Assembly: GCA_964016885.1 (NCBI GenBank)
Contig: OZ024743.1
Location: 293,880,001-293,944,000 of the forward strand
Reading direction: 5' to 3'
Origin: Eledone cirrhosa
Taxonomy: Eukaryota
Length of the DNA: 64,000 nt
The notes beneath the pieces are model-generated. The model ran no database searches and was not told where the DNA came from. It saw only the letters and a list, made by a program, of their open reading frames with translations. This document shows, piece after piece, positions 32,269 through 59,952 of the stretch; the stretch's first letter is position 1; every line of letters begins with the position of its first letter. A program made the position numbers and the translations under genes.

Positions 32269-32269
32269 A

Positions 32270-32595: not shown

Positions 32596-32667
<72 letters not shown>

Positions 32668-32925
32668 CTTTCTTTATTAACCACAAGGGTTTACACAAAG
32701 TAAGACATTAAGGACAATACAGGACAATACAGGACGGTACAAATTGGCATTTCTGCGTGTAAAAAACCCCCCAAAACAGAGGATGTAACAAAAAAAGAAA
32801 CAATGGAAAATTCCCCAATAGGGAGGAGACTTCCGAGGGACATTCGTGGAGAAAGCCCATTAAAAAAGCCACGGTGATCCTGACCACCAGGGCAAGTGCC
32901 CTCTCCCAAGTTTTACACCTTCAAT

Positions 32926-35900
32926 TTACAGGCACATACTCACACGGGCCATTCTTGCCTCTCTCACCCATCTTTCAACAAAATGCTGGGAAGAGAGCAC
33001 TTCCCTCTCTACCCTGATTTTCCTTTTCAAATGAAATTTGAAATAGTTAATCAGGGCATCACCAAAGAGGTAAGTGCTCGTCTTCAGCCCTTTCAAACGC
33101 GTCCACCATATTACCTCTTTCGCCATGGCTACCAGACAGATAAAAACTGCCTGTCCTTCTCGGCTAAAGGGAGAGGGCGGGGAAATCCTCACGATGGACT
33201 CAGCTGATAGCCGGATCCGTACTACACGCGACAGCAGGTGTTCGACATAAACCCACAAGTCAGCAATCCTCGGCTTGCACGCATCTCGGAAATGCCCGGC
33301 TGACGGCACCTCCATGCCTGTAGAGTTTATCCCAAACTGGCAAAGCTCCGGAGTAGCACTGCTAAGCCAGGGATTTCTGGAAGTTGTCCATAGGCCCCGG
33401 CCCGAAGGTTCTTCCGAAGAGATTGACTAGTTGATTTTTGTCGACGCCTAGAGTTTCCCCAAGTACGTCGTCGCTCTTCCCCTCCACTAATCCTCTACAT
33501 AACGCCAAGGTGAAGTTTCCACCGATCACATTGCCCGACTGGTCGAGGGCAGTGAGCGCCTGAAGACGTTCCGGTCTCTAAGCGCACCCTCTCGGTCTTC
33601 GCTTGACCCAGGACTGCAGCTCCGTCAAGGAGACGAGCTGGGGAAAGACGCGTCTAGCAAACGGCGACCACACCTGATTACCGTCGAGGAAGAGGTGGAG
33701 ATGTCGTAGCCTGAGCGCGTGTCTGCGCATCATCAGCCACGGCATTCCCAGCCATCCACGTAGTTGGTGTTGACAGCAGATGGATCGCTTGAAAATCGGA
33801 GCACGTCCCTTCCACATTAAGAGAAAGAGCAAACGCTCCAGCGCAGTCAGGCGAGGCTTAGGACAAGGCATGACGGTCAGGCGGTAGTAGATGACGGATG
33901 CGATGTACGCATTCGCCACCTCCGCTCGACCTTTCAGGGATAGCTTCCTCTTTGGCCATTTCTGGGCGAGAGAAGCCATCCTGCTCGTCACCTCGTCCCA
34001 GTTTTGTCCGGACCAAACCAGACCCCTAGCAATTTAACCGGTCCGTCTGTCCAGCGCCCGACGACGCTGTTGGACGGCATGGACCTTCCTCTCCAGGTGC
34101 TGAGCTGCAGGCCCACCGACTTTTCCTGGTTGACCATTGCTCCTGTCACCGCTTCGTATTCTCTTAACCGATCGCCTAGATGTGTTTGGCGTTCGACACC
34201 ACTACGGTGACATCGTCCGTATATGCTGACACGTATCTTCCGCATCCTAGTTCGCGCAGGACTTCCCTCAACGTCTCCAGTTTTTGCAGTAATGGCTCGA
34301 GAGTCAATACGTACAAGAGGGACGAGAGGGACATCCTTGGCGGACCGAGCGCATGATGTTGAACGGTTTCGAAAGGTGACCGTTCACTCTCACCACAGAG
34401 CAGATGTCACTGTGCATGGCAACGATCCAGCCTCTGAAGACGGGCCCAAAGCCAGACGCCCTCAGGACTTCTGCCAGATAACGATGGTCGACTCTATCGA
34501 AAGCTTTTGACTGTTCTAATTTGATCAAGGACTCACTCGTGTCAAGTTCCCTAGCTACTCTCTCCACGATGTATCGCATGAGGTGGAGGTTATCGTGGAT
34601 GGATCTGTCGGGAATGGCGAAGGACTGCGCTTCTCCCACCAGACCACTAACGACAAGCGCCAACCTCTTTGCTAGCACCTTGAACTCTGTGTTTAGCAGA
34701 GTTATGGGCCTCAAATTATCTACGTTATCCCCCTTGTTCGGATCCTTTCTCAGCAGCGCCAAAGCTCCTCGGCTCACAGAGCTGGGAATTCTCCCGTTCT
34801 GTTGCCAGTTGCAGTAGACGTCCGCCAAGAGGCCTCCGAACAAGTCTGGCATCTGTACGGAAAGTTCATAGGGCAGATCATCCAAACCAGGCGATTTACA
34901 CCTTGTGCAGACAGTCATTGCCTCCCGTACTTCAGCGGCTGTTATCGGCTTTTCGCAACACTCCACCTCAGTGGCCGAGGGCCGCGGCAGTCCGTCGAGG
35001 TAGGCACTAAGGTCCATACCCTCTATCCGGCCCGCCTCTGCCCCTGAACAGCTGAGCGAAGTGTCGCTGAAAAGCTTCACACATTTGCCCGGAATCGAGT
35101 AGCATGCTCCCGTCGTGGTCCACCAAAGACCGGATCGTCGCTTCGTTGCCACGACGCGCCTCCGCCACTCGGGCCCATTGAACGGCTTTCGTCCCCTCGT
35201 GTCTGAGAGCACGCACTCTAGCTCCGACAACGCAGCCTTCGTGCTTTGCATTGAAGAATTTCGCCTTAAGTACGTCGGTCGCGATGCCTTTACTAAGCGC
35301 CTCGTCTACTTTTCTAACTAGTTCTCCCTCTGCTCTATTTTTCTCTATTGCTAAAGCCTTACTAAACCTAATGGACTCTATTCTAATCGTTCTTTTCAGA
35401 GAAAACCACGATTTGTTGTTGACAATGGCCTCCGTCAACGCCCTCTTAACTAGTTTGCTAATTCGGCCTCTGTAGGCCTTGCGCACTGTTAATGAAGCGT
35501 TTAGCTTCCAGTAGCCGGGTCCCTGTCTATGGAGCCTATCTGACTCAACCTCACAGATCACGAATTTGTGGTCCGTGTATTCGACTATTTTGAAATGTGG
35601 ACAGCCTATTCTAGACCTATCTATTTCCCTACAAAATACCCTATCTAGATATGATCTGATGACCCGATGCGGTTTGTCCATGTCCACATTGGCACATTCG
35701 GGATATCCAGACGGTACCTGTCAGACAGTTGAAACCGTCTGAGCAGGTTTGCGAGGCTTTGAAACCCTCCTCCCATATCCGCTAATCCCACACAGTCCCA
35801 GCGTGCATCTAAGATCCTGTTCCAGTCGCCCACTAACACTAAAGAGCGGGCGTTCCAAGAAAGGTCTACAGACGCCGGAAGAAATCAGGCCGCCCTGCTC

Positions 35901-36245
35901 CTGTCGGGGCATAGACGGCCCCTAGCCTGAAAGCTTGCCTGTCTCCCCTGGTCACGTCCAGCACCACCAACTTACCTTCTGAGTCCAGAAAGATGGCCCG
36001 TATGGCGAGATCCGGACCTCTCTGAAAAATCACAGCAACTCCCCCCTCGATTCAGGACGGCTGTGAGATGCGTACACATCGTAGCCGCCGAAGATCGGTG
36101 TGAAGGCTCGTGCTTCTGAGATTTTGGTGTCGTGGATGGCCACCACATCTATGTTTAGTGACCTGAGGTCGTTGAGCAGGTGGCCCTGCTTCCATGTCGA
36201 CCCCAGGCCACGCGCATATATGCTGCCTATTATGAGTACAGTCAT
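32926..36245 (-). pseudogene. E1 ORF2 (APE endonuclease, RT, CCHC), multiply frameshifted
   Basis: Fragments with GDWN, YLDR, TDH, KAFDRVDH and SVRQGCP, collinear with the intact ORF2s. Confidence 0.9.
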
Positions 36246-36249
36246 GTTG

Positions 36250-38468
36250 AAAAGGAGTGGAAAACGATGGGAAAGACCACTTCTCGTAGAGGAAGGATGG
36301 TTTCTCCATCTTTCTCACTGCTTGTGGCCTCCTCCGGAAGGATGTCCTTATAAATCCTCCTGGAGAGTGTTTGTCGGAAGTCCCCGATGTCCTTGGGGAA
36401 TTTTTGTTTTAGTGTCGTATACGTTTTCTGTGTGATGCGAGTGATTTGTATGTGTGGAGGTGATGTGAATGTTTGGGGTGGTGTGTAGTATTTTTCTGTG
36501 AAGCTGGTGTTGTGTTGGATGTAGTATAATAATTGGTTGTTGTTCAAATTTAATGCTGTGTAGTGTGTATCGTTTTGGTTGTGTTTGTTGTGGGTTTGTT
36601 TCTGTTTCGCTTTTTGGTGATTTTTGTGGTGTTGGTGATGGTGTTATTGCGGTTAATGATGGTGATGGTGTTGGTGTTTGTGGTGATGGGGTTGGTGATG
36701 CATAGCTGTGTTAACCTTTTTGTTTGTTTGCTTATTTGTTTCCACCTGCATTTTGTTTTTGGAGGGTGAAGGAAGAGATATTATTTCTTTTTTGGGCGGT
36801 GGATTGGCAGTATCGGTAGAGGGTCGGACGCCATGCTTTCCAGCATAGTTACGTCCCTTTACGATCTGAATCCAAATCCCGCCGAGGTTGACTTTGCCTT
36901 TCATCCTTACGAGGTCGAATAAAATAAAGTACCAGTAATGCACTGGGTAATTGCTGGTCTTGTGCCTAAAGTAGAAACAATTATTTCTTTTTTGGGTTCT
37001 TTTTTTGTTTTTCTTTTTTTCTGATACAGTTTCCCACTCCTCTCATCGTCACAATGTTTCCAGTTGTCATAGGTCGGGGAGTAGAAAATCCGCCACAGGC
37101 ATTGGTTTTGGTTGTGGCGAGGTGGATCGTGGAGACGCTGGAGCTAATTCTGGCGCGGTGGGTGGTATTGGTGTTGATTTTACTACAGTTGCTGGGATTG
37201 TTGCTGCTACATTTGCTTCTGTTGTTGCTGCTACAGTTGTTGCTACCATTTCTGCTGCTGGTGGTTTTGATGGTTGAATTTTTGGGGTGGGTAGGAAAAG
37301 TGGCCTCAACTTTTTAGCTTGTGGGCAGAGAGCCTTTAGGGGGGTTCCTTCGCCACAAACGACACATCTAGGCCTTCTACCCTCAACGATTACGATAAGG
37401 TGGCTACCGTCATTGAGGTCTATCACCTCAGGAATTTCCTCAATGTTTTTTTGTTCCGCTTGGATTAGGAGCTCTATCTAAGATCTGGACCAGTTCTCCT
37501 GCTTTTCTTTTGTTACCTTAATTATTTTCGTGTTGGCCTCGATGCCGGCGAGGACGGCAGCCATTAGCCAGAGAATTTCGATGGCAGGCGGAACCGGGTC
37601 ACCCTGAACTTCACAATAGCTTGGGACGAGTGTGAACTCGTTACTTTTTAATGGGGCCATGGATTGCTCTCTGGCTTCCTGTGGGGTTCCAAAGAACACG
37701 TCCACGGTTCCATATTTCTGCCCACGTCTGATGTGGGTTTTTTTCGCCCAGACGTCCCAAAGCTTTTTGTATTTGGGACTCGGATGCCCGTTCCACTCGG
37801 CGTGATTTTGTGTTTATCGTCCGATATGACACGGTGCATGCTCCATTTTATTAGATGGGGGGTGGGGTGGGGCTGACCCTGTAGCTATCTTTTTTTACCA
37901 TTCGCTTGGCTTCATTTAATTCATCCTAGCTTACCTCGATTGTTTAGCTCCTCTTGGCTGCGTTGGCAAACGACACATTTTGTTTTGCGCTGGTGTTGTT
38001 GTTGTTATTCTCATTGTTGTTATTGTTGTTGCTGTTGTTGTTAATGTTATTTTTAGTTTCAGTTGTGGTGCAGGTGGTGGTGGTGTCAGTGGTGTTCGGC
38101 GTGGAAGAGTCGATTCTGGGTGAATCCATTTCGATGTCACGAGATAATAATTTATTTTTGCGGGTTTCTGTTGTTGCTGTGGTGGTGGTGGTGGTGGTGG
38201 TGGTGGTGATGGTGGTGGTGGTATTAGTGGTGTTCGTTGTTCTTTTTGACATTGTGGTGGTGGGGGTAGCGGCTTTAACACCTGCAGTTATTGGTAATGG
38301 CGGGAAATCCATGTCTTTATGCGGCAAATCTAAATAATTGAGACTGCTATTAATTATATTTTCAGTGTTGGCAACCGTGGCAAGGCTTACAATGGTGTTG
38401 GTGGTGGTGGTGGTGGTGGTGGTAGAGAGTGATGTTGGTCTGTTAAAAACAGAAGATTTGTCGTCCAT
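36250..38468 (-). pseudogene. E1 ORF1, disrupted by frameshifts and a SINE insertion
   Basis: Fragments SYRTINTKSRRVERA..QIQKALG, VEGRRPRCVVCG and KQKFPKDIGDFR. Confidence 0.85.
36794..36985 (+). mobile_element. Main tRNA-SINE inserted in E1 ORF1; 17-bp TSD ATTATTTCTTTTTTGGG (36780-36796 and 36980-36996)
   Basis: Full SINE with an exact flanking duplication; the homologous site in E5 (~63935-63960) is empty. Confidence 0.92.
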
Positions 38469-38715
38469 GTTTTTTTCAAAGAAATATTTTGTTTGATAAA
38501 TAACAAGTGTAAATTTTTGTCTCAAAGCCCCAATATTTTTGAATGTCCTTTCCAGAAAGTAATATATGTGAACTTCTAAACAGTTAACAACAAAAACTTT
38601 CCATAAGTGGCAATTTGAAACAACTGAAAACAACAAATCTTTGCGGAGCTCACGGTAACACGATTTCCTACGTAGGTCACCAATAATAATAATAATATTA
38701 ATAATAATGATAATA

Positions 38716-39800: not shown

Positions 39801-39819
39801 CAATAATAATAATGATAAT

Positions 39820-40705
39820 AATAATTGTTTCTACTTTTGGCAAAAGGCCAGCAATTATCCAGTACATAACTGGTATTTTATTTTATCGACCCCATAAGGA
39901 TGAAAGCAAAGTTTTCCTCGGCGGGATTACAACTCAGTCCGTAAAGGGACGGAGCTGTGCTGCAAATCATGGCGTCCGACCCGCTACCAATACTGCAAAT
40001 CCATCGGGTAAGGCGGAAAGGCAAAGTTAAACTCGGCGGATTTGAACTCATAATAATGATTATTATTTTATACGGTGGATTGGCAGTATTGGTAGAGGGT
40101 CGGGCGCGATGCTTTGAAGCATAGAGTTACCTCCCTTTATGATTTGAGTTCAAATCCCGCCGAGGTTAACTTTGCCTTTCATCCTTACGGGATCGATAAA
40201 ATAAAGTACCAGTAATACACTGGGACAATTGCTGGCCTGGTGCCAAAAGTAGAAACAATTATTATTATAATTATAGGGCGGTGGATTGGTAGTATCGGTA
40301 GAGGGTCGGATGCCATGCATGCTTTAACGCATAGAGTTACGGCCCTGGGCCATTCTCAGTTCAAATCCCGCCGAGGTTAACTTTGCTTTTCATCCTTACG
40401 GGGTCGATAAAATAAAGTACCAGTAATGCACTGGGTAATTGCTGGCCTTGTGCCATAAGTAGAAACAATTATTATTATAATTATGTTCATGGATTGGCAG
40501 TATCGTTAGAGCGTCGGACAAAGTGTCATATGATATTTGCTTACAGCTTTTTACTTTCTTAGTCCAAATTCCACCGATGAGAACTTTATCTTTCATATTT
40601 ATGATATAAACAAAATTAAGTACTAGTCAAGCACTGGGGTCAATACAACCGAGTTACCACTATCCCCCAAATGTCTAGCTATGCGTAAATAGGAAACAGT
40701 TATAA
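39820..40705. mobile_element. Cluster of about five main-family SINEs (minus 39820-40050; plus 40072-40262, 40276-40475, 40490-40705)
   Basis: Repeated A box, B box, central domain and tail motifs joined by (ATT)n. Confidence 0.85.
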
Positions 40706-41699: not shown

Positions 41700-41749
<50 letters not shown>

Positions 41750-42048
41750 TCTAATAATGATTTCTTTATTAGCCACAAGGGCTGACATCAAGAAAAACAT
41801 CACAGACGGAACAGAACGGTACGATGTGGGTTTTGTGCGTGTAAATATTTTTATTATTTATATAAGAAAAGAAAAAAAGACATAAAACATATATATATAT
41901 AAACAATAAAATGAAAATTGAAACAATGAAAAATTCCCCAATAGGGGGGAAACCTCCGAGGGTTACTCGTGGCGAAAACCACACAAAAGACCACGGCCAC
42001 CCTGACTACCAGAGCAAGCGCCCTCTCTCAATTTTTCCATCTCTCAAA

Positions 42049-45000: not shown

Positions 45001-45468
45001 CCACTAGCCCCACACGATCCAAGCGTGCATCCAAGATACCGTTCCAGTCGCCCACTAACACTAAAGAGCGGGACGTTCCAAGAAAGGTCTCTAGACGTCT
45101 TAAGAAATCTTGACGTCCTGCCCATGCTGGGGCGTAGACGGCTACTAGCCTGAAAGCATTGCCTTCGCTGCCGGTCACGTCCAGCACCACCGACTTACCT
45201 TCTGGGTCCAGGAAGATGGCCCGTATCGCGAGATCCAAGCCTCTCCGAAAAAGGACGGCAACCCCTCCACCCGACCCTGGACGGCTGGGAGATGCGTATA
45301 CATCGTAGCCGCCGAAGATCGGTGCGAAGGCCCGTGCCTCGGAGATTCTGGTTTCACTGATGGCCACCACATCTATGTTTAGTGACCTGAGGTCATTGAG
45401 CAGGTGACCCTGCTTACAAGATGACCCAGGCCACGTGCATTTATACTGCGTATTCTGAGTACAGCCAT
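42049..45468 (-). pseudogene. E2 ORF2 (APE-RT-CCHC), frameshifted
   Basis: SETR, GDWN, TDH, QGCPLS, YADD and CPR..HALVQC across several ORF fragments. Confidence 0.9.
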
Positions 45469-45500
45469 GTTGGATGAGAAACGGGGCAAATGAGAAAGGG

Positions 45501-47533: not shown

Positions 47534-47745
47534 GTTGAAATTAAAAAAATATATATTTTGACACAAATGCGAATACGACACCCCATTAAGGGGTGCCGTA
47601 TTATTTACTAGTGAACCCCTGTATTAGGTGGGTCACTTCTTCTAAACTTTTATCAAATTTAAAACTTGAATAAAAGGTTTAGAACGGTTGAAAAAGAGGT
47701 AAAACGTCGAAAAAGACTGGAGGCGATAAGAAGCGTGGCTTCAAC

Positions 47746-47792
<47 letters not shown>

Positions 47793-48043
47793 TTTCATTT
47801 ATTGGCCACAAGGGCCGACATATAGGGGACAACACAATAGACAGGGACAGTGGGGGTTTACATAGAGATCGAGTAAGTATAAATAACAAAAAAACAAAAT
47901 AACAATAAAAATACAACAATGAAAGTTCCCCAATAAGAGGGATCACCACCCAGGGTTGACTCAAGCACCCCACCAGTCCTGAGCCACCCGACGCTCCTAG
48001 GGCACCCGGGAAGGGCACCCCTCTCCTTCTCGAATTCACCAGC

Positions 48044-51000
48044 CTACAGGCGCATGATCAGAGTAGGCCCACTCACGCGGGCCATTCTCGCCACATTCAC
48101 CCACCTTTCAGTAAATGTACTGGGGGGCAGCACTTCTCTCTCCACCCTCACCTTCCTTTCCAAGTGAAACTTGAAGAAGTTGATGAGGGATTGGCCGAAG
48201 AGAAAAGTGTCTGTCTTCAGTCCTTTCAACCTGGTCCACCATGCAACCTCTTTCGCTACTGCCACCAGGCAGAGGAAAATTGCCTGCCCTTCCTGACCAA
48301 AAGAAGGCGGCGGGTCAATCTTCACTATGGACTCGGACGATAGCCGGATCCGTTCTACACGCGACAATAGCTGTTCGACATAACCCCACAAGTCAGCAAT
48401 GCACGGACACTGGACGAGTGCGTGCAGAACGGTTTCGTCGCTCTGCGCGCATCTCGGGCAGGTTCGTCTGACAGCACTTCCGTGCCTGTAGAGTTTATCC
48501 CGAACCGGCAGCGCCCCCCGGTAGCACTGCCAAGCGAGGGATTTCTGGAAGTTATCCATCGTCCCCGGCTCGAAAGTCCTCCGGAACATACTGGTCAGTT
48601 CTACTTCGTTGACGCCCAGAGCCTCTCCTAGTACGTCATCGCACTTGCCCTCCACTAATCCTCTATAGAAATCTTGAGTGGAAGTTCCACTGACCGCATT
48701 GCCCACCTTGCAGAGTGCAGTGAGCGCCTGGCAACATTCCAGATGCCAGTCGCCCAGTCTCGGTCTCTTCTTGACCCAGGACTGCAGCTCAGTCAAAGAG
48801 ATGAGCTGCGGAAAGGCCCGTCTAACAAACGGCGACCACACCTGTTCACCGTTTAGGCAAAATATCTGGAGATGTCGCAGCCTCAGCGCATGTCTGCGCA
48901 TCATTAGCCACGGCATGCCCAGCCCTCCACGAAGAGGGTGCTGGCAGCAGATGGACCGCCTCACCAACGGGACCCGTCCCCTCCACAAAAATTTGAAAAG
49001 GAGCCGTTCCAAATTGGCGAGGCGTGGACGGGGGCAAGGCACGACGGTCAGGCGGTAGTAGATGACGGACGCGATGTACGCGTTCGCCACCTCCGCCCGC
49101 CCTTTCAGTGATAGCTTTCTCTCAGCCCAATTCTGGGTGAGGTTGGCTATCCTGCTCGTCACCTCGTCCCAATTCTTATCCACCTGGAGGTCTGGTCCGA
49201 ACCAAACCCCGAGCAACTTTACCGGTCCGTCTGTCCAGCGCCCAACGACGCTGTTGGACGGCATGGACTTGCCTCTCCAGGTGCCGAGCTGCAAGCCCAC
49301 CGACTTTTCCGGGTTAAGTTTTGCTCCCGTCAACCTTTCATATTCCTCCAAATGGGTGCGGATCACCTCGATTTCCGAGGTGTCCGACACCATCACGGTG
49401 ATGTCGTCTGCATAAGCGGACGCAGCCTTTCTACGTCCCGGTTCGAGCGGGATGCCCTGCAACAACTCCAGCTTCCGCAGTAGAGGCTCAAGAGTCAATA
49501 CGTACAGAAGTGAGGAGAGAGGGCACCCTTGACGGACCGATCGAGAGATCTGAAACGGTTCCGAGAGGTGGCCATTAACTTTGACCACCGAGCGGATGCC
49601 GCTGTACATTGCAGCGATCCAGCTTCTGAAGACGGGGCCGAAGCCAGCCGCCTCGAGGACAGCCTCCAAGTACCGATGGTCGACCCTATCGAATGCTTTC
49701 GATTGATCTAAATTGATCAGAGCCCCACCGAAGCCAGGTTTGCACCCAACCCTCTCTATGATGTATCGCATGAGGTGGAGGTTGTCGTGTATGGACCTGG
49801 TCGGGATTGCGCAAGTTTGCGCCTCCCCAACCAAATCTTTGACGACAAGCGCCAACCTTTTCGCTAACACCTTGGCCAAAATCTTAAACTCTGTGTTGAG
49901 CAGGGTTATGGGCCTGAAATTATCTAGTGTGTCCCTCTTGTTCTCGTCTTTCCTTATCAGCGTCACTACGCCACGGCTCACAGAACTGGGAATGCTCCCG
50001 TTCTGCTGCCAGTTGCAGTAGAGCGCTTCGAGGAGATCGGAGAACAAGTCTGGCATATTTACGTAAAGCTCGTAGGGCAGACCATCCAAACCGGGTGACT
50101 TGCGACTCGAGCAGCCGACAAGGGCGTCCTGAATTTCGGCTGATGTTATCGGCTCTTCGCAGCGCTCAGCGTCGGCCGTCGAGAGGCGTGGCAAGCCGTC
50201 GAGGTAGGGACTGAAGTCCGCCGCCATCTCCGACTCACCCATCCTCCCGAACAATCGAGCAAAGTGCTGGCGAAAGGCCTCACACATCTGCTTGGAATCG
50301 CTCAGTTCGTGTCCATCTCGATCCGTCAAAGACCGAATTGTGGTTTTATTTCCACGCTGCGTCTCTGCAAAGCGAGCCCATCGGGCAGCTTTGGTTCCCT
50401 CGTTCCTCAGAGCACGCGCCTTAGCTCTGACAATGCAACCTTCGTGTTTCGCATTGAAGAAATGGTCTAGTGCCATTCTCGCCGCTAGCACGTCTGTTGC
50501 AATGCCACTACAAATAGCCTCGTCTAACTTAGCTATCAGCCCCTCCTCTTTTCTATTTTTCTCTATTGCTACTTCTTTGCTAAATCCTATCGAGGTTGCT
50601 CTAATCTCTCTTTTGAGTGCCCCCCACCACCTGTTGTTGACAACCCCCCCTGTCAACTTTTGCTTAACTAAGTTGTTGACCCGGTCCCTGTAAGCTTTAC
50701 GTGCCGGAAACGACATGTTTAGCTTCCAGTAGCTAGGTCCTAACCTACGTGTCTTATCTAGGTCGACCATACAGATCACAAGCTTGTGATCTGAATAGGC
50801 AACCGTTTTAAAATGTGGACATCCTACACTATTTCTATCTCTTTTCCTAATGAAAATCCTATCTATGTACGATCTAGATGACCCTATGCGATTGGTCCAG
50901 GTCCATACTGGCGCATTAGGGAAATCTAGTCGGTACCTGTCAGACAGTTGAAACTGGCTGATCAGGTACTTGAGGCTTTTGCACCCCCCGCTCCTATCAG

Positions 51001-51463
51001 ATACTCCCACACAATCCCAGCGTGCTTCTAAGATGCCATTCCAATCCCCTATTAACAGTAAAGGGCGAGACGTAAGCAGAAAGTTTTCCAGGCGCCTAAA
51101 GAAGTCCGGCCGACCGGCCCCAGTAGGGGCGTAGACTGCCACCAGTCTAAAGGCACCACCTTCGCTATTGCTCACGTCCAGGACCACCAACTTTCCGTCA
51201 GGATCCCGGAAGATTGACCTTACCTCGAGATCCAGACATTTCCTAAACAGCACAGCCACTCCACCTCCCATTCCCGGCCGACTAACAGATGCAAAGATCT
51301 GATAATCGTCGAAAATCGGCGCCAGTGCGCGTGTGTCGGAAATTCTGGTCTCGCTGATGGCAATTACATCCATTCCTAGTGACCTGAGGTCGTTGAGCAA
51401 GTGACCTTGCTTCCAGGGCGACCCCAGGCCACGAACATTTAAACTTCCTACTCTTATGGCCAT
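48044..51463 (-). CDS. E3 ORF2, 1139 aa: APE endonuclease, reverse transcriptase and CCHC zinc finger
   Basis: SLNVRGL, SETR, GDWN, IDR, SDH; NFRPITLLN, DQSKAFDRVDH, SVRQGCPLS, YADD; CPRC..ETVLHALVQC. Confidence 0.96.
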   Translation of the reverse strand: MAIRVGSLNVRGLGSPWKQGHLLNDLRSLGMDVIAISETRISDTRALAPIFDDYQIFASVSRPGMGGGVAVLFRKCLDLEVRSIFRDPDGKLVVLDVSNSEGGAFRLVAVYAPTGAGRPDFFRRLENFLLTSRPLLLIGDWNGILEARWDCVGVSDRSGGCKSLKYLISQFQLSDRYRLDFPNAPVWTWTNRIGSSRSYIDRIFIRKRDRNSVGCPHFKTVAYSDHKLVICMVDLDKTRRLGPSYWKLNMSFPARKAYRDRVNNLVKQKLTGGVVNNRWWGALKREIRATSIGFSKEVAIEKNRKEEGLIAKLDEAICSGIATDVLAARMALDHFFNAKHEGCIVRAKARALRNEGTKAARWARFAETQRGNKTTIRSLTDRDGHELSDSKQMCEAFRQHFARLFGRMGESEMAADFSPYLDGLPRLSTADAERCEEPITSAEIQDALVGCSSRKSPGLDGLPYELYVNMPDLFSDLLEALYCNWQQNGSIPSSVSRGVVTLIRKDENKRDTLDNFRPITLLNTEFKILAKVLAKRLALVVKDLVGEAQTCAIPTRSIHDNLHLMRYIIERVGCKPGFGGALINLDQSKAFDRVDHRYLEAVLEAAGFGPVFRSWIAAMYSGIRSVVKVNGHLSEPFQISRSVRQGCPLSSLLYVLTLEPLLRKLELLQGIPLEPGRRKAASAYADDITVMVSDTSEIEVIRTHLEEYERLTGAKLNPEKSVGLQLGTWRGKSMPSNSVVGRWTDGPVKLLGVWFGPDLQVDKNWDEVTSRIANLTQNWAERKLSLKGRAEVANAYIASVIYYRLTVVPCPRPRLANLERLLFKFLWRGRVPLVRRSICCQHPLRGGLGMPWLMMRRHALRLRHLQIFCLNGEQVWSPFVRRAFPQLISLTELQSWVKKRPRLGDWHLECCQALTALCKVGNAVSGTSTQDFYRGLVEGKCDDVLGEALGVNEVELTSMFRRTFEPGTMDNFQKSLAWQCYRGALPVRDKLYRHGSAVRRTCPRCAQSDETVLHALVQCPCIADLWGYVEQLLSRVERIRLSSESIVKIDPPPSFGQEGQAIFLCLVAVAKEVAWWTRLKGLKTDTFLFGQSLINFFKFHLERKVRVEREVLPPSTFTERWVNVARMARVSGPTLIMRL

Positions 51464-51492
51464 GCTGGCAGGATGAATGGGAGAGGAAAGGT

Positions 51493-53403
51493 TTACTTAC
51501 CTTCCGGGGTCTTGTGAAGGTCGGGTGGTTCGACCTCCATGGTTTGTGGGGTTTCTTTTGGGAACCCCTTTAATAGTCTTGACGTGGGTTTTACGTTCGG
51601 GGTTCCCACATCCCGAGGAAAGCTCTTTCGAATTTCTTTGTATGAAGCGAGCGACATTCGCATCAGAAGCAAATTATCTGGTACGCGAAATGTGCTCGCT
51701 TCAAATGTTTCCCCGTCTTTTTCGATGTTTGTGCTTCGTGCTACATGGGCCATCAATTCCTTGTTGGCCCTTCTGGCAAGCACGAAGTTTTTAATGTTTT
51801 GTTGCTCGGGTTTTATTTGTTCGTGTGATTGTGGTGGTGATAGCTTTGTTAGTGTTGTTTCTATTGTGTCTGCGTTTGTTGTGGGTGGGGTGTCTGTAGT
51901 TTCTGATGTTTGTGTGTCTATTTGTTCTTGTGTCTGTTTAGCTTGTTTGCGTTTGGGGGATTTTGGTGGTTGTGTTGGTGATGCTGTGGGGAAAATGTTT
52001 GTGTGGGTGGTGTGTGTATTTTTTTTTGTGGGGGTGTTTGTGCTTTGTGGATTTCTTTTTTTTTTGTGTTTTGTTTTTTGTATTTTGGGGGACTTTGGTT
52101 TTCCCTCATCTTCACTGCTGGAGGATGAGGGGTCTGTGGCTGTGAGCGTGTTTGTGTCTGAGTGAGTGTTTATGTTCTTGTTCGTGTGTGTATTTTGGGG
52201 GGGAGGGGGAATGGGAGAGCTTTCCTCGTTTCCCCCCTGGGTGTGCAATTTTGGTGGTTCCATTGTTGACGGTGTTGCTGGTGGTCCTTGTCCCGGCGTC
52301 GCCAGCAGTGGAATCTTTCGACCCCTTGCGCTTTTCGGCAGTTGAGGGCAGAAGGCTCGCAAGTGTGTCGTTTCCCCACAAAGGAAACAATGCGGCCTTT
52401 TGCCCTCAGTCATTATATGCAACACCCTCCCGTTTTGGAGGCGGATGTGGTCCGGGATTGCTTTTACGTTTTCGGGTCTGATTTGGAGCAGTATCTCCAG
52501 ATCAACCCCGGACCAGTCGTCCCTGGCAGTTCTCGTTGCCTCTACCGGGACTGTATCCGTTCCTTCCACGATTACGCAACCCAGGAGCCACCACATATCA
52601 AGTCCTGGTGGAATCCTGGGAATGCGCACACGTGCTATTCGTTTTCCCATGTGGGAGGGGTACATTATGACCTTGCTGGTTTTGCAAGGGGTCATTGAAT
52701 GCTTCACAGCGAGGGCTTCAGACTTGAACAGCACCGAAACGGTGCCGTATTGCCTGCCCCTCTCTATGAAGTCTGTGTCTTCTCTGATGTATTTCAGTGC
52801 GGCTTCTATGTCAGCTTGGGCGATTATCGCTGCCCTCTTTGTCTCTACTGAGATGCATCTGAAATGCACCGTTCTTTTTTCCACTGCCTCAATGGCTTCT
52901 GCCGGGACAGTTAAGTTTGCCCAGGTCTGCTCTTGATTTATGATTTTCCAGGCCTGGGCCAACTTTTCCTCTCTGTTGGTTAAGTCGATGCTGTAGCATG
53001 GTCTCCTTTTAGCCGCTGCCACAGCAGCGAAGGTGTTCTTGTTGGTGTTGTCACTGTTGTTGTTCTTGTTGGTGTTGCTGCTGCTATTGCTGTTGTTGTT
53101 CTCCCCTGTGTCGTGGTTACCCTCTGTGCTGTTGGCCTTGTTGGTGCTGTTGCTGTCGCTACTATTACTCTCTGTGCTGTTCGTTTTGTTGGTGCTCTCG
53201 CTATTACCACCTTCTGCGCTGTTCGGCTTGTTGGTGTTGGTGTTGTCACTGTTACCACCTTCCGCGCCGCTCGGCCCGTTGGTGCTGGCACTGTCGCTGC
53301 TCATACACGTGCTGGTGGCGCTCCTCGCCTCACCTCTCCTCTCAACGCTCAAGTCGCCGTTGCACGACAGCAGACCCGCCTCTAGGGGGCGTGGCTCCGC
53401 CAT
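51493..53403 (-). CDS. E3 ORF1, 636 aa nucleic-acid-binding protein
   Basis: N/S/T-rich N-terminus, RRM-like core, CFLCGETTHLRAFC knuckle and P/T/K-rich linker. Confidence 0.9.
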   Translation of the reverse strand: MAEPRPLEAGLLSCNGDLSVERRGEARSATSTCMSSDSASTNGPSGAEGGNSDNTNTNKPNSAEGGNSESTNKTNSTESNSSDSNSTNKANSTEGNHDTGENNNSNSSSNTNKNNNSDNTNKNTFAAVAAAKRRPCYSIDLTNREEKLAQAWKIINQEQTWANLTVPAEAIEAVEKRTVHFRCISVETKRAAIIAQADIEAALKYIREDTDFIERGRQYGTVSVLFKSEALAVKHSMTPCKTSKVIMYPSHMGKRIARVRIPRIPPGLDMWWLLGCVIVEGTDTVPVEATRTARDDWSGVDLEILLQIRPENVKAIPDHIRLQNGRVLHIMTEGKRPHCFLCGETTHLRAFCPQLPKSARGRKIPLLATPGQGPPATPSTMEPPKLHTQGGNEESSPIPPPPQNTHTNKNINTHSDTNTLTATDPSSSSSEDEGKPKSPKIQKTKHKKKRNPQSTNTPTKKNTHTTHTNIFPTASPTQPPKSPKRKQAKQTQEQIDTQTSETTDTPPTTNADTIETTLTKLSPPQSHEQIKPEQQNIKNFVLARRANKELMAHVARSTNIEKDGETFEASTFRVPDNLLLMRMSLASYKEIRKSFPRDVGTPNVKPTSRLLKGFPKETPQTMEVEPPDLHKTPEGK

Positions 53404-53901
53404 GTTTTTTTGAGAAAAAAATTATGATTTTTCCAAAATAAAGTTCAAATATTTGGGCCAAAAGGCCCAAATATTATGAGTTATTCCTTCACAGGATACA
53501 AATTAATGTCTTATAATGCTTCAGCGGTACAAAAAATAAACAATTCTCTACAATTAATCCTCAAAAAATTGCTTACTCACGGAGCTTCAAAAAACGTACA
53601 TCCACTTTCGTCAATAATAATAATAATAATAATAATAATGATTTCTTTATTAACCACAAGGGTTTACATAAAGTAGACATTAAGGACAGTGCAGGACAAT
53701 GCAGGACGGTACAAATGGGCATTTCTGCGTGTAAAAAAACAAAAACAGAGGATGTAACAAAAATAACAATGAAAATAACAATGAAAAATTCCCCAATAGG
53801 GGGGAGACTTCGGAGGGACATTTGTGGAGAAAGCCCAGTAAAAAGCCACAATGACCCTGACCACCAAGGCAAGTGCCCTCTCCCAGTTTTCCACCTTTAG
53901 T

Positions 53902-56900
53902 TTACAGATATATACTCAGAGTCGGCCCATTCACTCGAACCATTCTTGCTTCTCTCACCCATCTTTCAACAAAATGCTGGGAAGAGAGCACTTCCTTCTC
54001 TACTCTGATTTTCCTTTTCAAATGAAATTTGAAAAAGTCAATCAGAGCATCACCGAAGAGGTAAGTGCTCGTCTTCAGCCCTTTCAAACGTGTCCACCAT
54101 ACTATCTCTTTCGCCATGGCCACCAGACAGATAAAAACTGCCTGCCCTTCCCGGCTAAAGGAGGAGGGCGGGGCAATCCTCACGATAGACTCAGATGATA
54201 GCTGGATCCGTCCTAAACGCGACAGCAGGTGTTCGACATAAACCCACAAGTCAGCAATTTTCGGACACTGGACGAGTGCGTGCAGGACGGTTTCGTCGCC
54301 CTGCGCGCATCTCGGACATGCCCGGCTGACGGCACCTCCATGCCTGTAGAGTTTATCCCGAACTGGCAAGGCTCCTCGGTAGCACTGCCAGGCCAGAGAT
54401 TTCTGGAAGTTGTCCATAGGCCCTGGCCCGAAAGTTCTTCCGAAGAGATTGGCTAGTTGATTTTCGTCGACGCCTAGAGTTTCCCCAAGTACGTCGTCGC
54501 TCTTCCCCTCCACTAATCCTCTATAGAACGCCGAGGTGGAGTTTCCACCGATCACATTGCCCGATTGGTCGAGGGCTGTGAGCGCCTGAAGACATTCCAG
54601 TCTCCAGGCGCTCCCTCTCGGTCTTCGCTTGACCCAGGACTGCAGCTCCGTCAAGGAAACGAGCTGGGGAAAAACGCGTCTAGCAAACGGCGACCACACC
54701 TGATCACCGTCGAGGAAGAGGTGGAGATGTCGTAGCCTGAGCGCGTGCCTGCGCATCATCAGCCACGGCATGCCCAGCCCTCCACGTAGCGGGTGTTGAC
54801 AACAGATGGACCGCCTGACCATCGGAGCACGTCCCTTCCACAAAAAGCGAAAGAGCAAACGCTCCAGCGCAGTCAGGCGAGGCTTTTGACAAGGTACGAC
54901 GGTTAGGCGGTAGCAGATGACAGACGCGATGTACGCGTTAGCCACCTCCGCTCGACCTTTCAGGGATAGCTTCCTCTCCGCCCATTTCTGGGTGAGAGAA
55001 GCCACCCTGCTCGTCACCTCGTCCCAGTTTTTGTCCGTCTGGAGGTCCGGACCGAACCAGACCCCTAGCAATTTAACCGGTCCGTCCGTCCAGCGACCGA
55101 CGACGCTGTTGGACGGCATGGACCTTCCTCTCCAGGTGCCGAGCTGCAGGCCCACTGACGTTTCCTGGTTGATCATTGCTCCTGTCACCGCTTCGTATTC
55201 TCTTAGTGTAGTGCCGATCGCCTCGATGTGTTTGGCGTTCGACACCACTACGGTGACATCGTCCGCATATGCTGACACGGATCTTCCGCATCCTAGTTCG
55301 CGCGGGACTCCCCTCAACGTCTCCAGTTTGTGCAGTAATGGCTCGAGAGTCAATACGTACAAGAGGGACGAGAGGGGACATCCTTGGCGGACCGAGCGCA
55401 TGATGTTGAACGGTTCCGACAGGTGACCGTTCACTCTCACTACAGAGCAGATGTCGCTGTGCATGGCAGCGATCCAGCCTCTGAAGACGGGCCCAAAGCC
55501 AGCCGCCCTCAGGACTGCCGCTAGGTAACGATGGTCGACCCTATCGAAAGCTTTCGACTGATCTAAATTGATCAAGGACCCACCCGTGCCAGGTTCCCTA
55601 GCTACCCTCTCTACGATGTATCGCATGAGGTGGAGGTTGTCGTGGATGGATCTGTCGGGAATGGCGCATGTCTGCGCCTCTCCCACCAGACCACCAACGA
55701 CAAGCGCCAACCTCTTTGCTAGCACCTTGGCCAAAATCTTAAACTCTGTGTTTAGCAGAGTTATGGGCCGGAAATTGTCTATGTTATCCCCCTTGTTCGG
55801 ATCCTTTCTCAGCAGTGCTACCGCTCCTCGGCTCACAGAACTGGGAATTCTCCCGTTCTGTTGCCAGTTGCAGTAGACGTCCGCCAAGAGGCCTCCGAAC
55901 AAGTCTGGCATCTGTACGTAAAGTTCATAGGGCAGACCATCCAAACCAGGCGATTTACCCCTTGTGCAGCCAGTCATTGCCTCCCGTACTTCAGCGGCTG
56001 TTATCGGCTTTTCGCAACACTTCGCCTCAGTGGCCAAGAGCCGCAGCAGTCCGTCGAGGTAGACACTAAAGTCCATCCCTCTACCCGGCCCCCCGCTGCC
56101 CCCGAACAGCTGAGCGAAGTGTCGCTGAAAAGCTTCACACATTTGCCCGGGATCGAGTAGCATGCGCCCGTCGTGGTCCACCAAAGACCGGATCGTGGCT
56201 TTGTTGCCACGACGCGCCTCCGTCACTCGGGCCCATTGAACGGCTTTCGTCCCCTCGTGTCTGAGAGCACGCACCCTAGCTCTGACAACGCAGCCTTCGT
56301 GCTTTGCATTGAAGAATTGGTCAAGGGCCAATTTCGCCGCAAGCACGTCGGTCGCAATGCCTTTGCTAAGCGCCTCGTCTAATTTTCTAACTAGTTCTCC
56401 CTCTGCTCTATTGTTCTCTATTGCTAAAGCCTTATTAAACCTAATCGATTCTATTCTAATCGCTCTTTTCAGAGCAAACCACCACTTGTTGTTGACGATG
56501 GTCCCCGTCAACGCCCGCTTAACTAGTTCGCTAATTCGGTCTCTGTAGGCCTTGCGCGCTGGTAAGGACGCGTTTAGCTTCCAGTAGCCGGGTCCTCGTC
56601 TATGAAGCCTATCTAAATCAAGCACACAAGTCACGAATTTGTGGTCCGTGTAGCTGACTATCTTGAATTGTGGACAGCCTATGCTAGACCTATCTATTTC
56701 CCTACAAAATACTCTATCTAGATATGATCTGGATGACCCTATGCGGTTTGTCCAAGTCCACATGGGCACATTCGGGAAATCCAATCGGTACCTGTCAGAC
56801 AGTTCAAAACGCCTGAGCAGGTTGGTGAGGCTCTTGCACCCTCCACCCCTATCCGCTAATCCCACACAGTCCCAGCGTGCATGTAAGATCCCGTTCCAGT

Positions 56901-57321
56901 CGCCCACTAACACTAAAGAGCGGGACGTTCCAAGAAAGGTCTCCAGACGCCGGAAGAAATCAGGCCGCCCTGCTCCTGTCGGGGCATAGACGGCCACTAG
57001 CCTGAAAGCTTGCCCGTCTCCGCTGGTCACGTCCAGCACCACCAGCTTACCCTCTGGGTCCAGGAAGATGGCCCGTATGGCGAGATCCAAACCTCTCCGA
57101 AAAAGCACAGCAACTCCTCCACCCGATCCAGGACGGCTGGGAGATGCGTACACATCGTAGCCGCCGAAGATCGGTGCGAAGGCCCGTGCTTCGGAGATTC
57201 TGGTCTCGCTGATGGCCACTAAATCTATGTTTAGTGACCTGAGGTCGTTGAGCAGGTGACCCTGCTTCCATGACGACCCCAAGCCACGCGCATTTATGCT
57301 GCCTATTCTGAGTGAGGTCAT
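53902..57321 (-). CDS. E4 ORF2, 1139 aa: APE, RT and CCHC
   Basis: Same catalytic motifs as E3 (GDWN, TDH, QGCPLS, YADD, CPRC..H..QC). Confidence 0.96.
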   Translation of the reverse strand: MTSLRIGSINARGLGSSWKQGHLLNDLRSLNIDLVAISETRISEARAFAPIFGGYDVYASPSRPGSGGGVAVLFRRGLDLAIRAIFLDPEGKLVVLDVTSGDGQAFRLVAVYAPTGAGRPDFFRRLETFLGTSRSLVLVGDWNGILHARWDCVGLADRGGGCKSLTNLLRRFELSDRYRLDFPNVPMWTWTNRIGSSRSYLDRVFCREIDRSSIGCPQFKIVSYTDHKFVTCVLDLDRLHRRGPGYWKLNASLPARKAYRDRISELVKRALTGTIVNNKWWFALKRAIRIESIRFNKALAIENNRAEGELVRKLDEALSKGIATDVLAAKLALDQFFNAKHEGCVVRARVRALRHEGTKAVQWARVTEARRGNKATIRSLVDHDGRMLLDPGQMCEAFQRHFAQLFGGSGGPGRGMDFSVYLDGLLRLLATEAKCCEKPITAAEVREAMTGCTRGKSPGLDGLPYELYVQMPDLFGGLLADVYCNWQQNGRIPSSVSRGAVALLRKDPNKGDNIDNFRPITLLNTEFKILAKVLAKRLALVVGGLVGEAQTCAIPDRSIHDNLHLMRYIVERVAREPGTGGSLINLDQSKAFDRVDHRYLAAVLRAAGFGPVFRGWIAAMHSDICSVVRVNGHLSEPFNIMRSVRQGCPLSSLLYVLTLEPLLHKLETLRGVPRELGCGRSVSAYADDVTVVVSNAKHIEAIGTTLREYEAVTGAMINQETSVGLQLGTWRGRSMPSNSVVGRWTDGPVKLLGVWFGPDLQTDKNWDEVTSRVASLTQKWAERKLSLKGRAEVANAYIASVICYRLTVVPCQKPRLTALERLLFRFLWKGRAPMVRRSICCQHPLRGGLGMPWLMMRRHALRLRHLHLFLDGDQVWSPFARRVFPQLVSLTELQSWVKRRPRGSAWRLECLQALTALDQSGNVIGGNSTSAFYRGLVEGKSDDVLGETLGVDENQLANLFGRTFGPGPMDNFQKSLAWQCYRGALPVRDKLYRHGGAVSRACPRCAQGDETVLHALVQCPKIADLWVYVEHLLSRLGRIQLSSESIVRIAPPSSFSREGQAVFICLVAMAKEIVWWTRLKGLKTSTYLFGDALIDFFKFHLKRKIRVEKEVLSSQHFVERWVREARMVRVNGPTLSIYL

Positions 57322-57356
57322 GTTTAAAATAGAGTGGAAAAGATGGGAAAGACCAC

Positions 57357-59453
57357 TTACCGTACTTTTGGTAGAGGAGGGATGGTTTTTACATCCCTTT
57401 TCACTTGATCGTCTGGTGAAGGGACCGTTGAATCGTCCCTTCGGCTGGTCGTCGGCTCTTCTAAGAGAATGTCTGAATATACTCTTCGATTAATGGTTCC
57501 TCCTAGGTCCCTGAAATCACCAACTGCGTTGGGGAATTTCGTTTTAATGTTTGTGTATTGTTTCTGTGCTATTTTTAGCAGTCTTATGTTAGTTGGCGTT
57601 TTGATTGGTGCTGGTATTATGTAGTCCTGTTGTGAAATGTCTGTGTGTTCAATTATGTAAGTCATTAGTTTCTTGTTGTGTGTGTTTATTGCCGTGCATT
57701 TGTTTTTCTGGGGGTGGGGTGTGGTTCTGCTATTTTCTTGTCGTTGTTGCTGGGTGTGTGTGTTTTGTTGTTGTGTTTGCGATGTTGGTGCTTGTGGTGG
57801 TGGTGTTGAAGGTGTTGTTGGCGGTGGGGTTGTCGCCGGTGGTGATGGTGGTGCTGGTGTGGGTGGTGATGGTGTTGGTGGTGTTGCTGCTGTGGGTCTC
57901 TTTGCAGTAGACTTTACCCTTTTCTCATTTCTTTCCTCCCTTTTCAAAGGCGACGATGCGCTGCTTCTCCGTTTGTGCCTTCTTGCGACCTTTTGCCATC
58001 CCTCTCCCACCTCACACTCCATGTCTGATTCTGTAAGGTCGGGGAGGGGTACCAGCTCCACTCTTTCACTTGTTGTTGTTGGTGATGTTTGCACTGGAGT
58101 CTCTGTTGCAGCTGCATTTGGTATTGCTGTTGTTGTTGTTAATATTTCCACTGCTGCTGCTGTCTTTGATTTCCGTGGAGTGGGTATGGGTACCATGGAC
58201 CTATCGTTCCTGGTTGCCGCTTGTCCTGTTGCTGGTAGCCGTGGAGCCGGATTCGGAAGGAGGGGGGTTTTCTCCTTTCTCAGGGTCTTCTCGTTGCAGA
58301 AGGCCCTGAGGTGAGTCTTCGATCCACAGCGAAAGCATTTCGGGCGTTTGCCCTCAACACTTATGGGCAGTTGAGTGCCGTTATCGAAGTCTATCACATC
58401 CGGGATAGCTTCGATGCACTCCTGGTTGGTTTGGATTAGCATCTCAATGGAGGAGCCGACCCAATCTTCTCTTACTTTTTTCTGTACTTGCAGTACAGTT
58501 GTTTTGTCCTCGATTCCGACGAGGACAGACGCGGCCAGCCAAGAAGGGGTCATTCCGGGTGGGACGTGGGTCAGTTTTACCCTCACAATTTTTTGCCCGC
58601 AGTAGGAGGGCACCAACACCATTTCCTCGCTCCTTAGGGTCACTACTGATTGGGCCTTTGCCTCCTGGGGTGTGGCAAAAAGTACGTCTACGGTGGCGTA
58701 TTTTTTGCCTCGGGTGATGTGCGTTTTCCTCTGCCACACAGACCCCAAGGCTTTTTGTATTTGGGCCTCTGTGGCTCTTTCCACCCTACGGGATTTTGTA
58801 CTTACTGTACGGTACGTGACCGTACAGTGCTCTTGGGTTTTGAAAAAATTTTTCGCTGCCTTGCAGATTGCTCGGTGTCCGTTCTTTGTCACCATCTTCT
58901 TCGCTTCCTCTAATTCCTCATTTGTTATGAGGATTGTTTCCAAGTTTTTCGCAATACCTGCAAATGAGATTGGTTTTTCTCTGCTGTTGTTGTTGTCGTC
59001 AGAGCTGCTGGTACTTTTGTTGTTGCTGCAGGTACTACGACTACTGCCTCCGCCGCTGTTGCTGTGGTTGTTGTTGGTGTTGCTGCTGCTAATGCTGTTG
59101 TTGTTTATGCTGCTGGTGATGCTGTTGCGGCTGCTACTGTTGTTTTCATTGTCACTGTTGCTGTTGTTATTACGGCTGCTACTGCTATTATTCCTGACGT
59201 CAGACGAATGAACTGGGTTTTCGTATTTCCCGCACACCTGTTTCGTCGCTGTCGTCGTCGTCGTGGAGAAACCTTGCACGCTTTGCACGAGACTTTTCTT
59301 TTCTTTCGTCGCTTGCGAAAGAGAAGGGAGGGAGAGAGACACATTTAAAGAAGGGAGGGAGAGAGACGATCTTCTCTCTGCTGTAGTGATGATTGAGGAA
59401 GAAGAAGACGGAATGAGTGGGAGTGACGTATGAAATTTCTTTTTCGTAGCCAT
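57357..59453 (-). CDS. E4 ORF1 (ATG at 59453, MATKKK...)
   Basis: AAAAAAACATG start context, poly-N/S tract and CFRCGSKTHLRAFC knuckle. Confidence 0.9.
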   Translation of the reverse strand: MATKKKFHTSLPLIPSSSSSIITTAERRSSLSLPSLNVSLSLPSLSQATKEKKSLVQSVQGFSTTTTTATKQVCGKYENPVHSSDVRNNSSSSRNNNSNSDNENNSSSRNSITSSINNNSISSSNTNNNHSNSGGGSSRSTCSNNKSTSSSDDNNNSREKPISFAGIAKNLETILITNEELEEAKKMVTKNGHRAICKAAKNFFKTQEHCTVTYRTVSTKSRRVERATEAQIQKALGSVWQRKTHITRGKKYATVDVLFATPQEAKAQSVVTLRSEEMVLVPSYCGQKIVRVKLTHVPPGMTPSWLAASVLVGIEDKTTVLQVQKKVREDWVGSSIEMLIQTNQECIEAIPDVIDFDNGTQLPISVEGKRPKCFRCGSKTHLRAFCNEKTLRKEKTPLLPNPAPRLPATGQAATRNDRSMVPIPTPRKSKTAAAVEILTTTTAIPNAAATETPVQTSPTTTSERVELVPLPDLTESDMECEVGEGWQKVARRHKRRSSASSPLKREERNEKRVKSTAKRPTAATPPTPSPPTPAPPSPPATTPPPTTPSTPPPQAPTSQTQQQNTHTQQQRQENSRTTPHPQKNKCTAINTHNKKLMTYIIEHTDISQQDYIIPAPIKTPTNIRLLKIAQKQYTNIKTKFPNAVGDFRDLGGTINRRVYSDILLEEPTTSRRDDSTVPSPDDQVKRDVKTIPPLPKVR

Positions 59454-59666
59454 GTTTTTTTGTTTAAAATGAAATTTTGGGTACAAAACCCCAATAACTG
59501 GTTATTTAACCCCGAAGGGCCAAATAACGGACAGAAAGACCCCTCTCACGAGGAGGAGGGTGTCTTTATCAACAATTTGGTTCAAGTTTTAAACAATTTA
59601 CAATTGTTTTAACGGTTAAAAATTACTATACCTTACAGAGCCGAGCCTCCGTCAACCATGGCATTC

Positions 59667-59709
<43 letters not shown>

Positions 59710-59952
59710 TTTTCTTTATTAACCACAAGGGTTTACATAAAGTAGACATTAAGGACAGTACATGACAATACAGGACGGTACAAATGGGCATTTCTGCGTG
59801 TAGAAAAACAGAGGATGAAATAAAATAACAAAGAAAGAATTCCCCAATAGGGGGGAGACTTCCGAGGGACATTTGTGGAGAAAGCCCATTAAAAAACCAC
59901 AGTGGCCCTGACCACCAGGGCAAGTGCCCTCTCCCAGTTTTCCACCTTTAAT

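Follow-up and report, generated by a model that had tools for sequence, protein, structure and literature searches.

A predicted 3'-terminal hairpin in microsatellite-targeted L1-group LINEs of Eledone cirrhosa and a matching tail in an abundant SINE

The stretch analyzed here (the window) comprises 64,000 nucleotides of the Eledone cirrhosa genome (assembly GCA_964016885.1, contig OZ024743.1, positions 293,880,001 to 293,944,000 of the forward strand) and contains five long interspersed nuclear elements (LINEs), named E1 to E5, whose RNAs carry a small predicted hairpin close to the 3' end. As shown in Table 1, E2 to E5 lie head to tail with (ATT)n alone between the copies, and the array continues with a sixth element that follows E5 beyond the window and reaches about 71,602. 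Both open reading frames (ORFs) were open in E3 and E4 and broken in E1, E2, and E5. In a search of the genome (3.0 Gb), the E3 family gave at least 150 matches, many of them spaced 5.84 kb apart. Over their last 200 aa, all 150 scored matches showed 100% identity, which indicates that this family is young.

Table 1. Positions in the window of the LINEs, their 3' structures, the target microsatellite and the SINE-like repeats.
Feature	Positions	Strand	Description
E1	32667..38681	-	Degenerate full-length LINE; SINE inserted in ORF1 region
E1 terminal hairpin	32679..32691	-	AACC-CUUGU-GGUU, then AAUAAA, GAAAGC, (ATT)23
E2	41759..47745	-	Degenerate full-length LINE
E2 terminal hairpin	41771..41783	-	AGCC-CUUGU-GGCU
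E3	47791..53612	-	LINE; ORF1 (51493-53403) and ORF2 (48044-51463; AP endonuclease, RT, zf-RVT), both open
E3 terminal hairpin	47804..47816	-	GGCC-CUUGU-GGCC
E4	53640..59666	-	LINE; open ORF1 (57357-59453) and ORF2 (53902-57321)
E4 terminal hairpin	53652..53664	-	AACC-CUUGU-GGUU
E4 helix H3	53790..53805	-	UCCCC-CCUAUU-GGGGA; C-G/U-A swap in sister families
E4 helix H2	53815..53857	-	GGG...CCC; inner stems lineage-specific
E4 helix H1	53866..53879	-	First conserved hairpin past the ORF2 stop
E5	59709..64000	-	LINE; ORF2 frameshifted; extends past the window to about 65,599
E5 terminal hairpin	59721..59733	-	AACC-CUUGU-GGUU
Target microsatellite	47746..47790	-	(ATT)15 between E3 and E2
Similar ATT tracts	53613-53639, 59667-59708, 41702-41749, 32598-32666, 38682-38696		
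SINE-like repeat	40274..40472	+	About 200 bp; its end reads UGGC-CUUGU-GCCA (40443-40455), followed by GUAGAAACA and ATT
SINE copy	25003-25180	-	
SINE copy	27866-28058	+	
SINE copy	32491-32597	-	
SINE copy	39821-40006	-	
SINE copy	40073-40262	+	
SINE copy	36796-36985	+	Inside the E1 ORF1 region, interrupting it at 36779-36985

The first-pass annotation had placed a hairpin-forming 13-mer directly before AATAAA in each LINE, and all five were recovered at these positions on the minus strand, followed by AATAAA, GAAA-N-C, and (ATT)n. Three Watson-Crick pairs in the hairpin register were found at only 1 of 357 background AATAAA sites, and a genome search with the inner-stem positions left free gave 18,131 matches compared with 20 for the reversed control; the placement of the hairpin is therefore not due to chance. 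Among eight lineage representatives, the last 23 columns of the 3' untranslated region (UTR) were 81% identical, while the other UTR blocks ranged from 53 to 70%. The unit that is conserved consists of a CYNGU loop on a weak stem of 3 bp, located 12-14 nt from the end of the element. An Rfam scan of 24.5-60.5 kb returned no meaningful match, the four weak ones all lying on simple repeats.

The ORF2 product of these LINEs combines an apurinic/apyrimidinic (AP) endonuclease (PF03372), a reverse transcriptase (RT, PF00078), and a C-terminal PF13966 (zf-RVT) domain. Its best match among solved structures was human L1 ORF2p (E 4e-56), compared with E 5e-22 for R2. By these domains and this closest match the LINEs are assigned to the L1 group (L1/Tx1), and membership of the Tx1 clade is likely. 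The closest named protein, from Argonauta hians, was 69% identical in the RT region. A tree of 38 sequences, built without named Tx1 references, placed the family in a broad group that also contains U2-adjacent (Keno-like) elements; the deep nodes were weakly supported, and this topology looks compatible with a Tx1 placement. Relatives of about 30% identity (80 loci fetched) lay beside U2 small nuclear RNA (snRNA) in 5 of 18 scanned loci and beside 5S ribosomal RNA in 1. A CCHC zinc knuckle in ORF1 is a feature of the Tx1 clade; the spacing CX2CX4HX4C was visible in ORF1 of E2, E3, and E4, and Pfam matched zf-CCHC only in the E2 ORF1 remnant, at an E value of 0.0036 that is weaker than the cut-off.

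Target specificity, another mark of Tx1 elements, was also observed. In full-length young E3 copies the 5' side was (ATT)n in 20 of 20 and the 3' side continued as CATT in 19 of 20. Since the repeat is also present upstream, (ATT)n is a target as well as a tail. Sister families were inserted in (TCTA)n, (TA)n, or satellite DNA. One of them occupies a satellite of about 60 bp, in arrays and with duplications of at least 22 bp (C1:4.227-4.259 Mb, L032, L033; L034, L036, L050), and would represent target switching inside one radiation that keeps the hairpin.

Some further observations concern the copies themselves. E4 and E5 are 95% alike across ORF2 and the 3'UTR, with the match ending at the ORF2 start. 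ORF1 of E2 resembles that of E4, and the ORF1/5'UTR modules differ among neighbors (45400-47745, 51493-53612, 57357-59666, 63406-64000), which suggests that ORF1 and promoter modules may have been swapped. A genome pattern count was skewed between strands (621 forward, 194 reverse), a hint that at some place in the assembly many copies of one LINE family may form a large array in a single orientation. On the plus strand at 31857-32290, a related LINE has left an old 3' fragment that is decayed and whose terminal motif is degenerate.

The poly(A) ending that marks insertions of relaxed-type LINEs was absent: at the fetched loci, 0 of 108 distinct LINE 3' ends were followed by an A run. The copies ended at a fixed base, 6-8 nt after AAUAAA, and were flanked by duplications of 11-24 bp. 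Such a distance is shorter than that usually separating the hexamer from the cleavage site, and because the element ends so early, transcription likely continues into the flanking (AUU)n. A genome search for the motif followed by A12 gave 440 overlapping matches. Among the matches listed, the candidate poly(A)-tailed family was discarded, as all 13 of the 13 stretches fetched turned out to be a composite in which pieces of a sister family are scrambled and form inverted repeats, and two further places resembled real LINE ends in which the A run comes after the target repeats. The composite (L253-L265) is itself a dispersed, foldback-like repeat in which the end of a sister-family ORF2 and its 3'UTR are inverted and scrambled, with internal A runs.

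The hairpin was then followed in larger sets. A stem-free 3'-end pattern matched 44,619 ends in the genome (control 1,993), and an RT motif gave 14,955 matches. From 84 entries, 75 ORF2-anchored copies were retained after 8 without a locatable end and 1 duplicate were removed. In these loci, which were picked for diversity and in part through a pattern containing CTTGT, the loop was CTTGT in 42, CCTGT in 8, CTAGT in 7, CTCGT in 7, CTGGT in 6, and another sequence in 5. From the outermost to the innermost, the four pairs were kept in 50, 70, 72, and 71 of the 75 copies. The sister families carried UGCC-CUAGU/CUGGU/CUCGU/CUUGU-GGCA, UGCC-CCUGU/CUUGU-GGCU, and CGCC-CUUGU-GGCA/U, and a common ATT-group family had AGCC/GGCC, i.e., an A.C mismatch at the outer pair. 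RNAalifold kept the three inner pairs and dropped the outer one in 36 aligned UTRs. Whole-UTR folds gave pair 2 a probability of at least 0.6 in 11 of 16 cases, and in E4 a lower stem was predicted in which upstream CUUUAU pairs with AUAAAG. The form GACC/GGCC, in which pair 2 is broken, was weighed as a possible family of its own and rejected: it occurred in 11 of 87 copies of an old family, and the 3 examined were all old and decayed.

Besides the terminal hairpin, three conserved helices (H1-H3) are predicted upstream in the 3'UTR. The second motif of the first-pass annotation, a CCC..TATTGGGGAA hairpin, corresponds to H3 and proved real; RNAalifold predicted it unprompted, and a C-G/U-A swap was present in 8 of 36 UTRs. 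The annotation did not contain H2. In H1 and H2 the stems were complementary within each lineage (for H1, GCAC/GUGC, GUAC/GUAC, and ACAC/GUGU), with the alignment out of register in this region for E1, E2, E4, and E5 and single-sequence folding z-scores of +0.7 to -2.2. A four-helix model of the 3'UTR was drawn by eye and counted against 500 shuffles. It paired 88% of the cells and contained 64 double-change cells, each value being reached by 0 of 500 shuffles.

The tail was also found on the SINE-like repeat (short interspersed nuclear element, SINE) of the window, which ends UGGC-CUUGU-GCC(A/U)-AAAGUA-GAAACA directly before ATTA. This tail pattern had 185,048 matches in the genome (control 0), and the SINE core was present in 30 of 30 sampled matches. 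The commonest stems among 149 anchored matches were UGGC/GCCU (53) and UGGC/GCCA (42). Pair 3 is G-C in the SINE and C-G in the LINEs, a change on both sides, while the outer pair is U.U or U-A, the same alternatives as in sister LINE families. The loop, CUUGU, is that of the ATT-group LINEs, and the stem lies 12 nt from the end, compared with 12-14 nt in the LINEs. The SINE has neither AAUAAA nor H1-H3, and its similarity to the LINE ends spans about 30 nt. When three SINE tails were compared with 11 LINE ends, only 0-111 of 2000 shuffles beat the observed similarity; with the ends of CR1-, R4-, and RTE-like elements it remained at the chance level (330-1771 of 2000).

The insertion sites of the two element types were alike. 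The 3' flanks of the SINE began with ATTA in 28 of 30 copies, and duplications of 11-21 bp were seen in 19 of 30, a handful being ambiguous because they lie in ATT repeats; their length is similar to that of the LINE duplications. SINEs were frequent directly behind LINE ends. At L064, ATT repeats flank a SINE that is inserted in the 3'UTR of a LINE, some 45 nt short of the end of that LINE. The SINE is non-coding, with a B-box-like word, GAGTTCAAATC, recognized by eye only, and a tRNA-derived head was not confirmed by ARAGORN or Rfam, which detected no tRNA. A 45-bp tandem array at 26925-27909 (22 copies, 95%) derives from the 5' portion of the SINE. At about 38700-39801 on the plus strand, opposite to E1 and using the same microsatellite, a 3' fragment of another LINE ends in (AAT)n; it looks R4/Dong-like.

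The first-pass annotation had called this L1/Tx1-like family stringent. This is still the best reading, but the reason given for it, covariation with a fixed loop in five copies, is insufficient. A hairpin by itself is not diagnostic, since human L1, which is relaxed, also has a conserved 3'UTR stem-loop (PMC5135761; this source, PMC4494074, PMC4176376, PMC8967140, and PMC13282606 are cited here and below for the available parts of their text). The conserved 3'-terminal stem-loop of a stringent-type LINE is present, with thin covariation, and stronger support appears to come from the poly(A)-free insertions and from a SINE that shares hairpin, spacing, and target site. We infer that the ORF2p of these microsatellite-targeting LINEs probably recognizes the 3' hairpin (3-bp stem, CYNGU loop) together with GAAA, and that the abundant SINE likely borrows the enzyme through the same module. 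The domain content, the (ATT)n target, the exact 3' end without poly(A), the conservation of the terminal ~23 nt, and a SINE tail that shares loop and spacing were observed directly; binding, priming, and trans-mobilization of the SINE are proposed.

The process could run as follows. An RNA polymerase II transcript would use AAUAAA and be cleaved slightly into the flanking (AUU)n, and ORF2p would bind the hairpin-GAAA module. At an ATTA site, the endonuclease would nick the strand that reads AAT, and the nicked end would anneal to the AUU repeats of the RNA. Primed on these repeats, reverse transcription would begin 5' of the poly(A). Each new copy would then end in C directly before ATT, i.e., at a fresh target. 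Because each insertion would thus recreate the target at its own 3' end, head-to-tail arrays and SINEs right behind LINE ends would result. The SINE would have kept the hairpin, GAAA, and AUU, and not AAUAAA or the upstream helices.

Several observations weigh against recognition of the hairpin by ORF2p. The changes described earlier as fully compensatory reduce to a single G-C/A-U swap at pair 2: the AACC/GGUU copies (E1, E4, E5, and kin) formed one clade in a tree built from the final 1.5 kb of ORF2 (rows less than 60% identical to E3 left out), so the swap is one event. By this tree, the inner stem of the LINEs shows one independent compensatory change. The two innermost pairs never changed on both sides among the LINEs, and the outer pair was unpaired in 13 of 36 UTRs (A.C, U.U, C.A, C.U). 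Covariation over four pairs was rejected. Loop positions 2-3 vary among LINE families as well; the loop reported as an invariant CUUGU holds in the ATT-targeting families, with CUAGU, CUGGU, CUCGU, or CCUGU read in sister families. The conservative measures of the four-helix model were not significant, with 11 double-change pairs (93/500 shuffles) and 31 extra pair types (305/500). The stem is also weak: alone, the terminal hairpin folds at -2.0 (E4), -4.2 (E2), and -6.6 (E3) kcal/mol with z-scores of -0.8 to -1.6, and in 4 of 16 whole-UTR folds pair 2 had a probability below 0.2. Alternatively, the conserved letters might be read as a primary sequence motif, CCYNGUGG-AAUAAA-GAAA, single-stranded or as DNA, the pairing being incidental and one double change luck. 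The lack of covariation at the two inner pairs, the non-significant z-scores, and the free outer pair all suit this idea, yet both sides changed at pair 2 in the E1/E4/E5 clade and again at pair 3 in the SINE. Moreover, in the old family a single pair-2 change occurred in 22 of 87 copies and a double change in 0 of 87, which looks like decay after insertion and not like an active stem-broken family. We regard this explanation as very improbable.

The hairpin directly abuts AAUAAA, a hexamer present without variation in 36 of 36 UTRs, as would suit a role in 3' processing. The hairpin and AAUAAA could serve the LINE mRNA as an element for 3'-end processing or stability, with template choice achieved by cis preference and annealing of read-through (AUU)n, and without specific binding by ORF2p. 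Part of AAUAAAG is taken up by the predicted lower stem, repeat annealing by itself would explain poly(A)-free copies, and the human L1 stem-loop cited above did not prevent its classification as relaxed (PMC5135761). However, the SINE keeps the hairpin, with its double change at pair 3, without AAUAAA, which is unexpected for a helper of a poly(A) signal, and we consider this explanation unlikely. Somewhat less likely still is that the LINE hairpin matters while the SINE was moved by another LINE, either CR1-like with an ATT tail or unsampled, so that the SINE tail is a relic or convergent and uninformative on Tx1 stringency. An exact LINE donor of the tail was not found: a LINE end with the exact GGC/GCC stem of the SINE and AATAAA had 163 matches in the genome, and 12 of 12 inspected were SINE tails. 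Tail similarity was weakest for E1 and E4, better for E2 and the TCTA-targeting sister families, and best for L038 of the TCTA group, and the common stretch is short. A LINE presumed to be CR1-like ends ...TTTC(ATT)n (L065:4230-4883, minus strand, L039, L209); its hairpin-like GTAGTGC-ACCTGA-GCAC is different, however, and its end did not align to the SINE tail. RTE-like partners were rejected, with 0 of 20 loci checked showing such an end, many of them truncated or decayed, and the ATTA-starting SINE duplications match those of the LINEs.

Recognition through the hairpin-GAAA module, the reading preferred here, has precedents. Like these LINEs, Tx1L, Keno, Kibi, Koshi, and Tx1-Mar have two ORFs, an AP endonuclease, an RT, and a C-terminal zinc finger, and a microsatellite target, and Keno neighbors U2 snRNA (PMC4494074), as do some relatives of about 30% identity. 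In the present radiation, insertions lie in (ATT)n, (TCTA)n, (TA)n, and a satellite. Tx1-Mar has been linked by its target to the poly(A)-tailed SINEU, and the available text reports no LINE with the SINEU-1 3' end (PMC4494074). Among the listed members of 80 distant metagenome relatives, the CYNGU motif was not seen and A-run ends were frequent. Maize LINE1-1_ZM with ZmSINE2/3 and Chlamydomonas L1-1_CR with SINEX-3_CR are proposed stringent L1-clade pairs (PMC3472496, PMC3747384). They resemble the present candidate pair in the L1-clade enzyme, a terminal hairpin with compensatory changes, conserved loop bases, and a tail-sharing SINE, deduced from sequences alone in both cases. The present pair differs in being animal, Tx1-like, and microsatellite-targeted, with poly(A)-free copies, a shorter 3-bp core stem, and a shared tail of about 30 nt compared with 50-80 nt. 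The L2 LINEs UnaL2, ZfL2-1, and ZfL2-2 likewise have a terminal stem-loop followed by short tandem repeats and a tail-sharing SINE, but they belong to a different clade and their tail is backed by binding and mutant data, while the present family is known from sequence (PMC4176376). Mammalian L1 with Alu, the relaxed system, provides the best structural match to ORF2p and similar duplications of 11-24 bp; the present LINEs differ in having no poly(A), a fixed end base, and a specific target. Human L1 and Alu both have a conserved 3' stem-loop (PMC5135761), and a shared tail is the feature by which stringent LINE/SINE pairs are classically recognized (PMC3472496, PMC4176376).

Octopus repeats include L1-Tx1, CR1, RTE, Dong-R4, and abundant SINEs, with no SINE partner named in the available text (PMC13282606, PMC8967140), and the available parts of PMC4824008, PMC4758252, PMC10294476, and PMC5786205 contain no octopus Tx1/SINE pair. 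In the literature searched, we found no report of the CYNGU hairpin or of an animal tail-sharing Tx1/SINE pair; Repbase, Dfam, and most subscription papers (e.g., the 1994 octopus SINE paper) lay outside this search and may describe the families. Stringent L1-clade elements have been proposed in plants and a green alga; the concept is established, and an animal Tx1/SINE pair would extend it. Tentatively, we propose as a real possibility that a minimal CYNGU hairpin, and not poly(A), is what the octopod Tx1 radiation (about 40,000 3' ends) reads, that this radiation has switched microsatellite targets while keeping the hairpin, and that it drives a SINE whose copies exceed 185,000. This would be a stringent tail-sharing pair in the animal L1/Tx1 group and would stand behind part of the octopus SINE expansion. 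Two examples, from plants and algae, underlie the open question of whether the L1 clade started stringent and then relaxed (PMC3472496). With its open ORFs, its 13-nt candidate handle, the natural variants of its loop, and a probable partner SINE, the animal Tx1 family described here brings this question within reach of tests with an L1-type enzyme. If the proposal is true, a likely driver would be named for one SINE family among those that dominate octopus repeats (SINE share: PMC8967140, PMC13282606).

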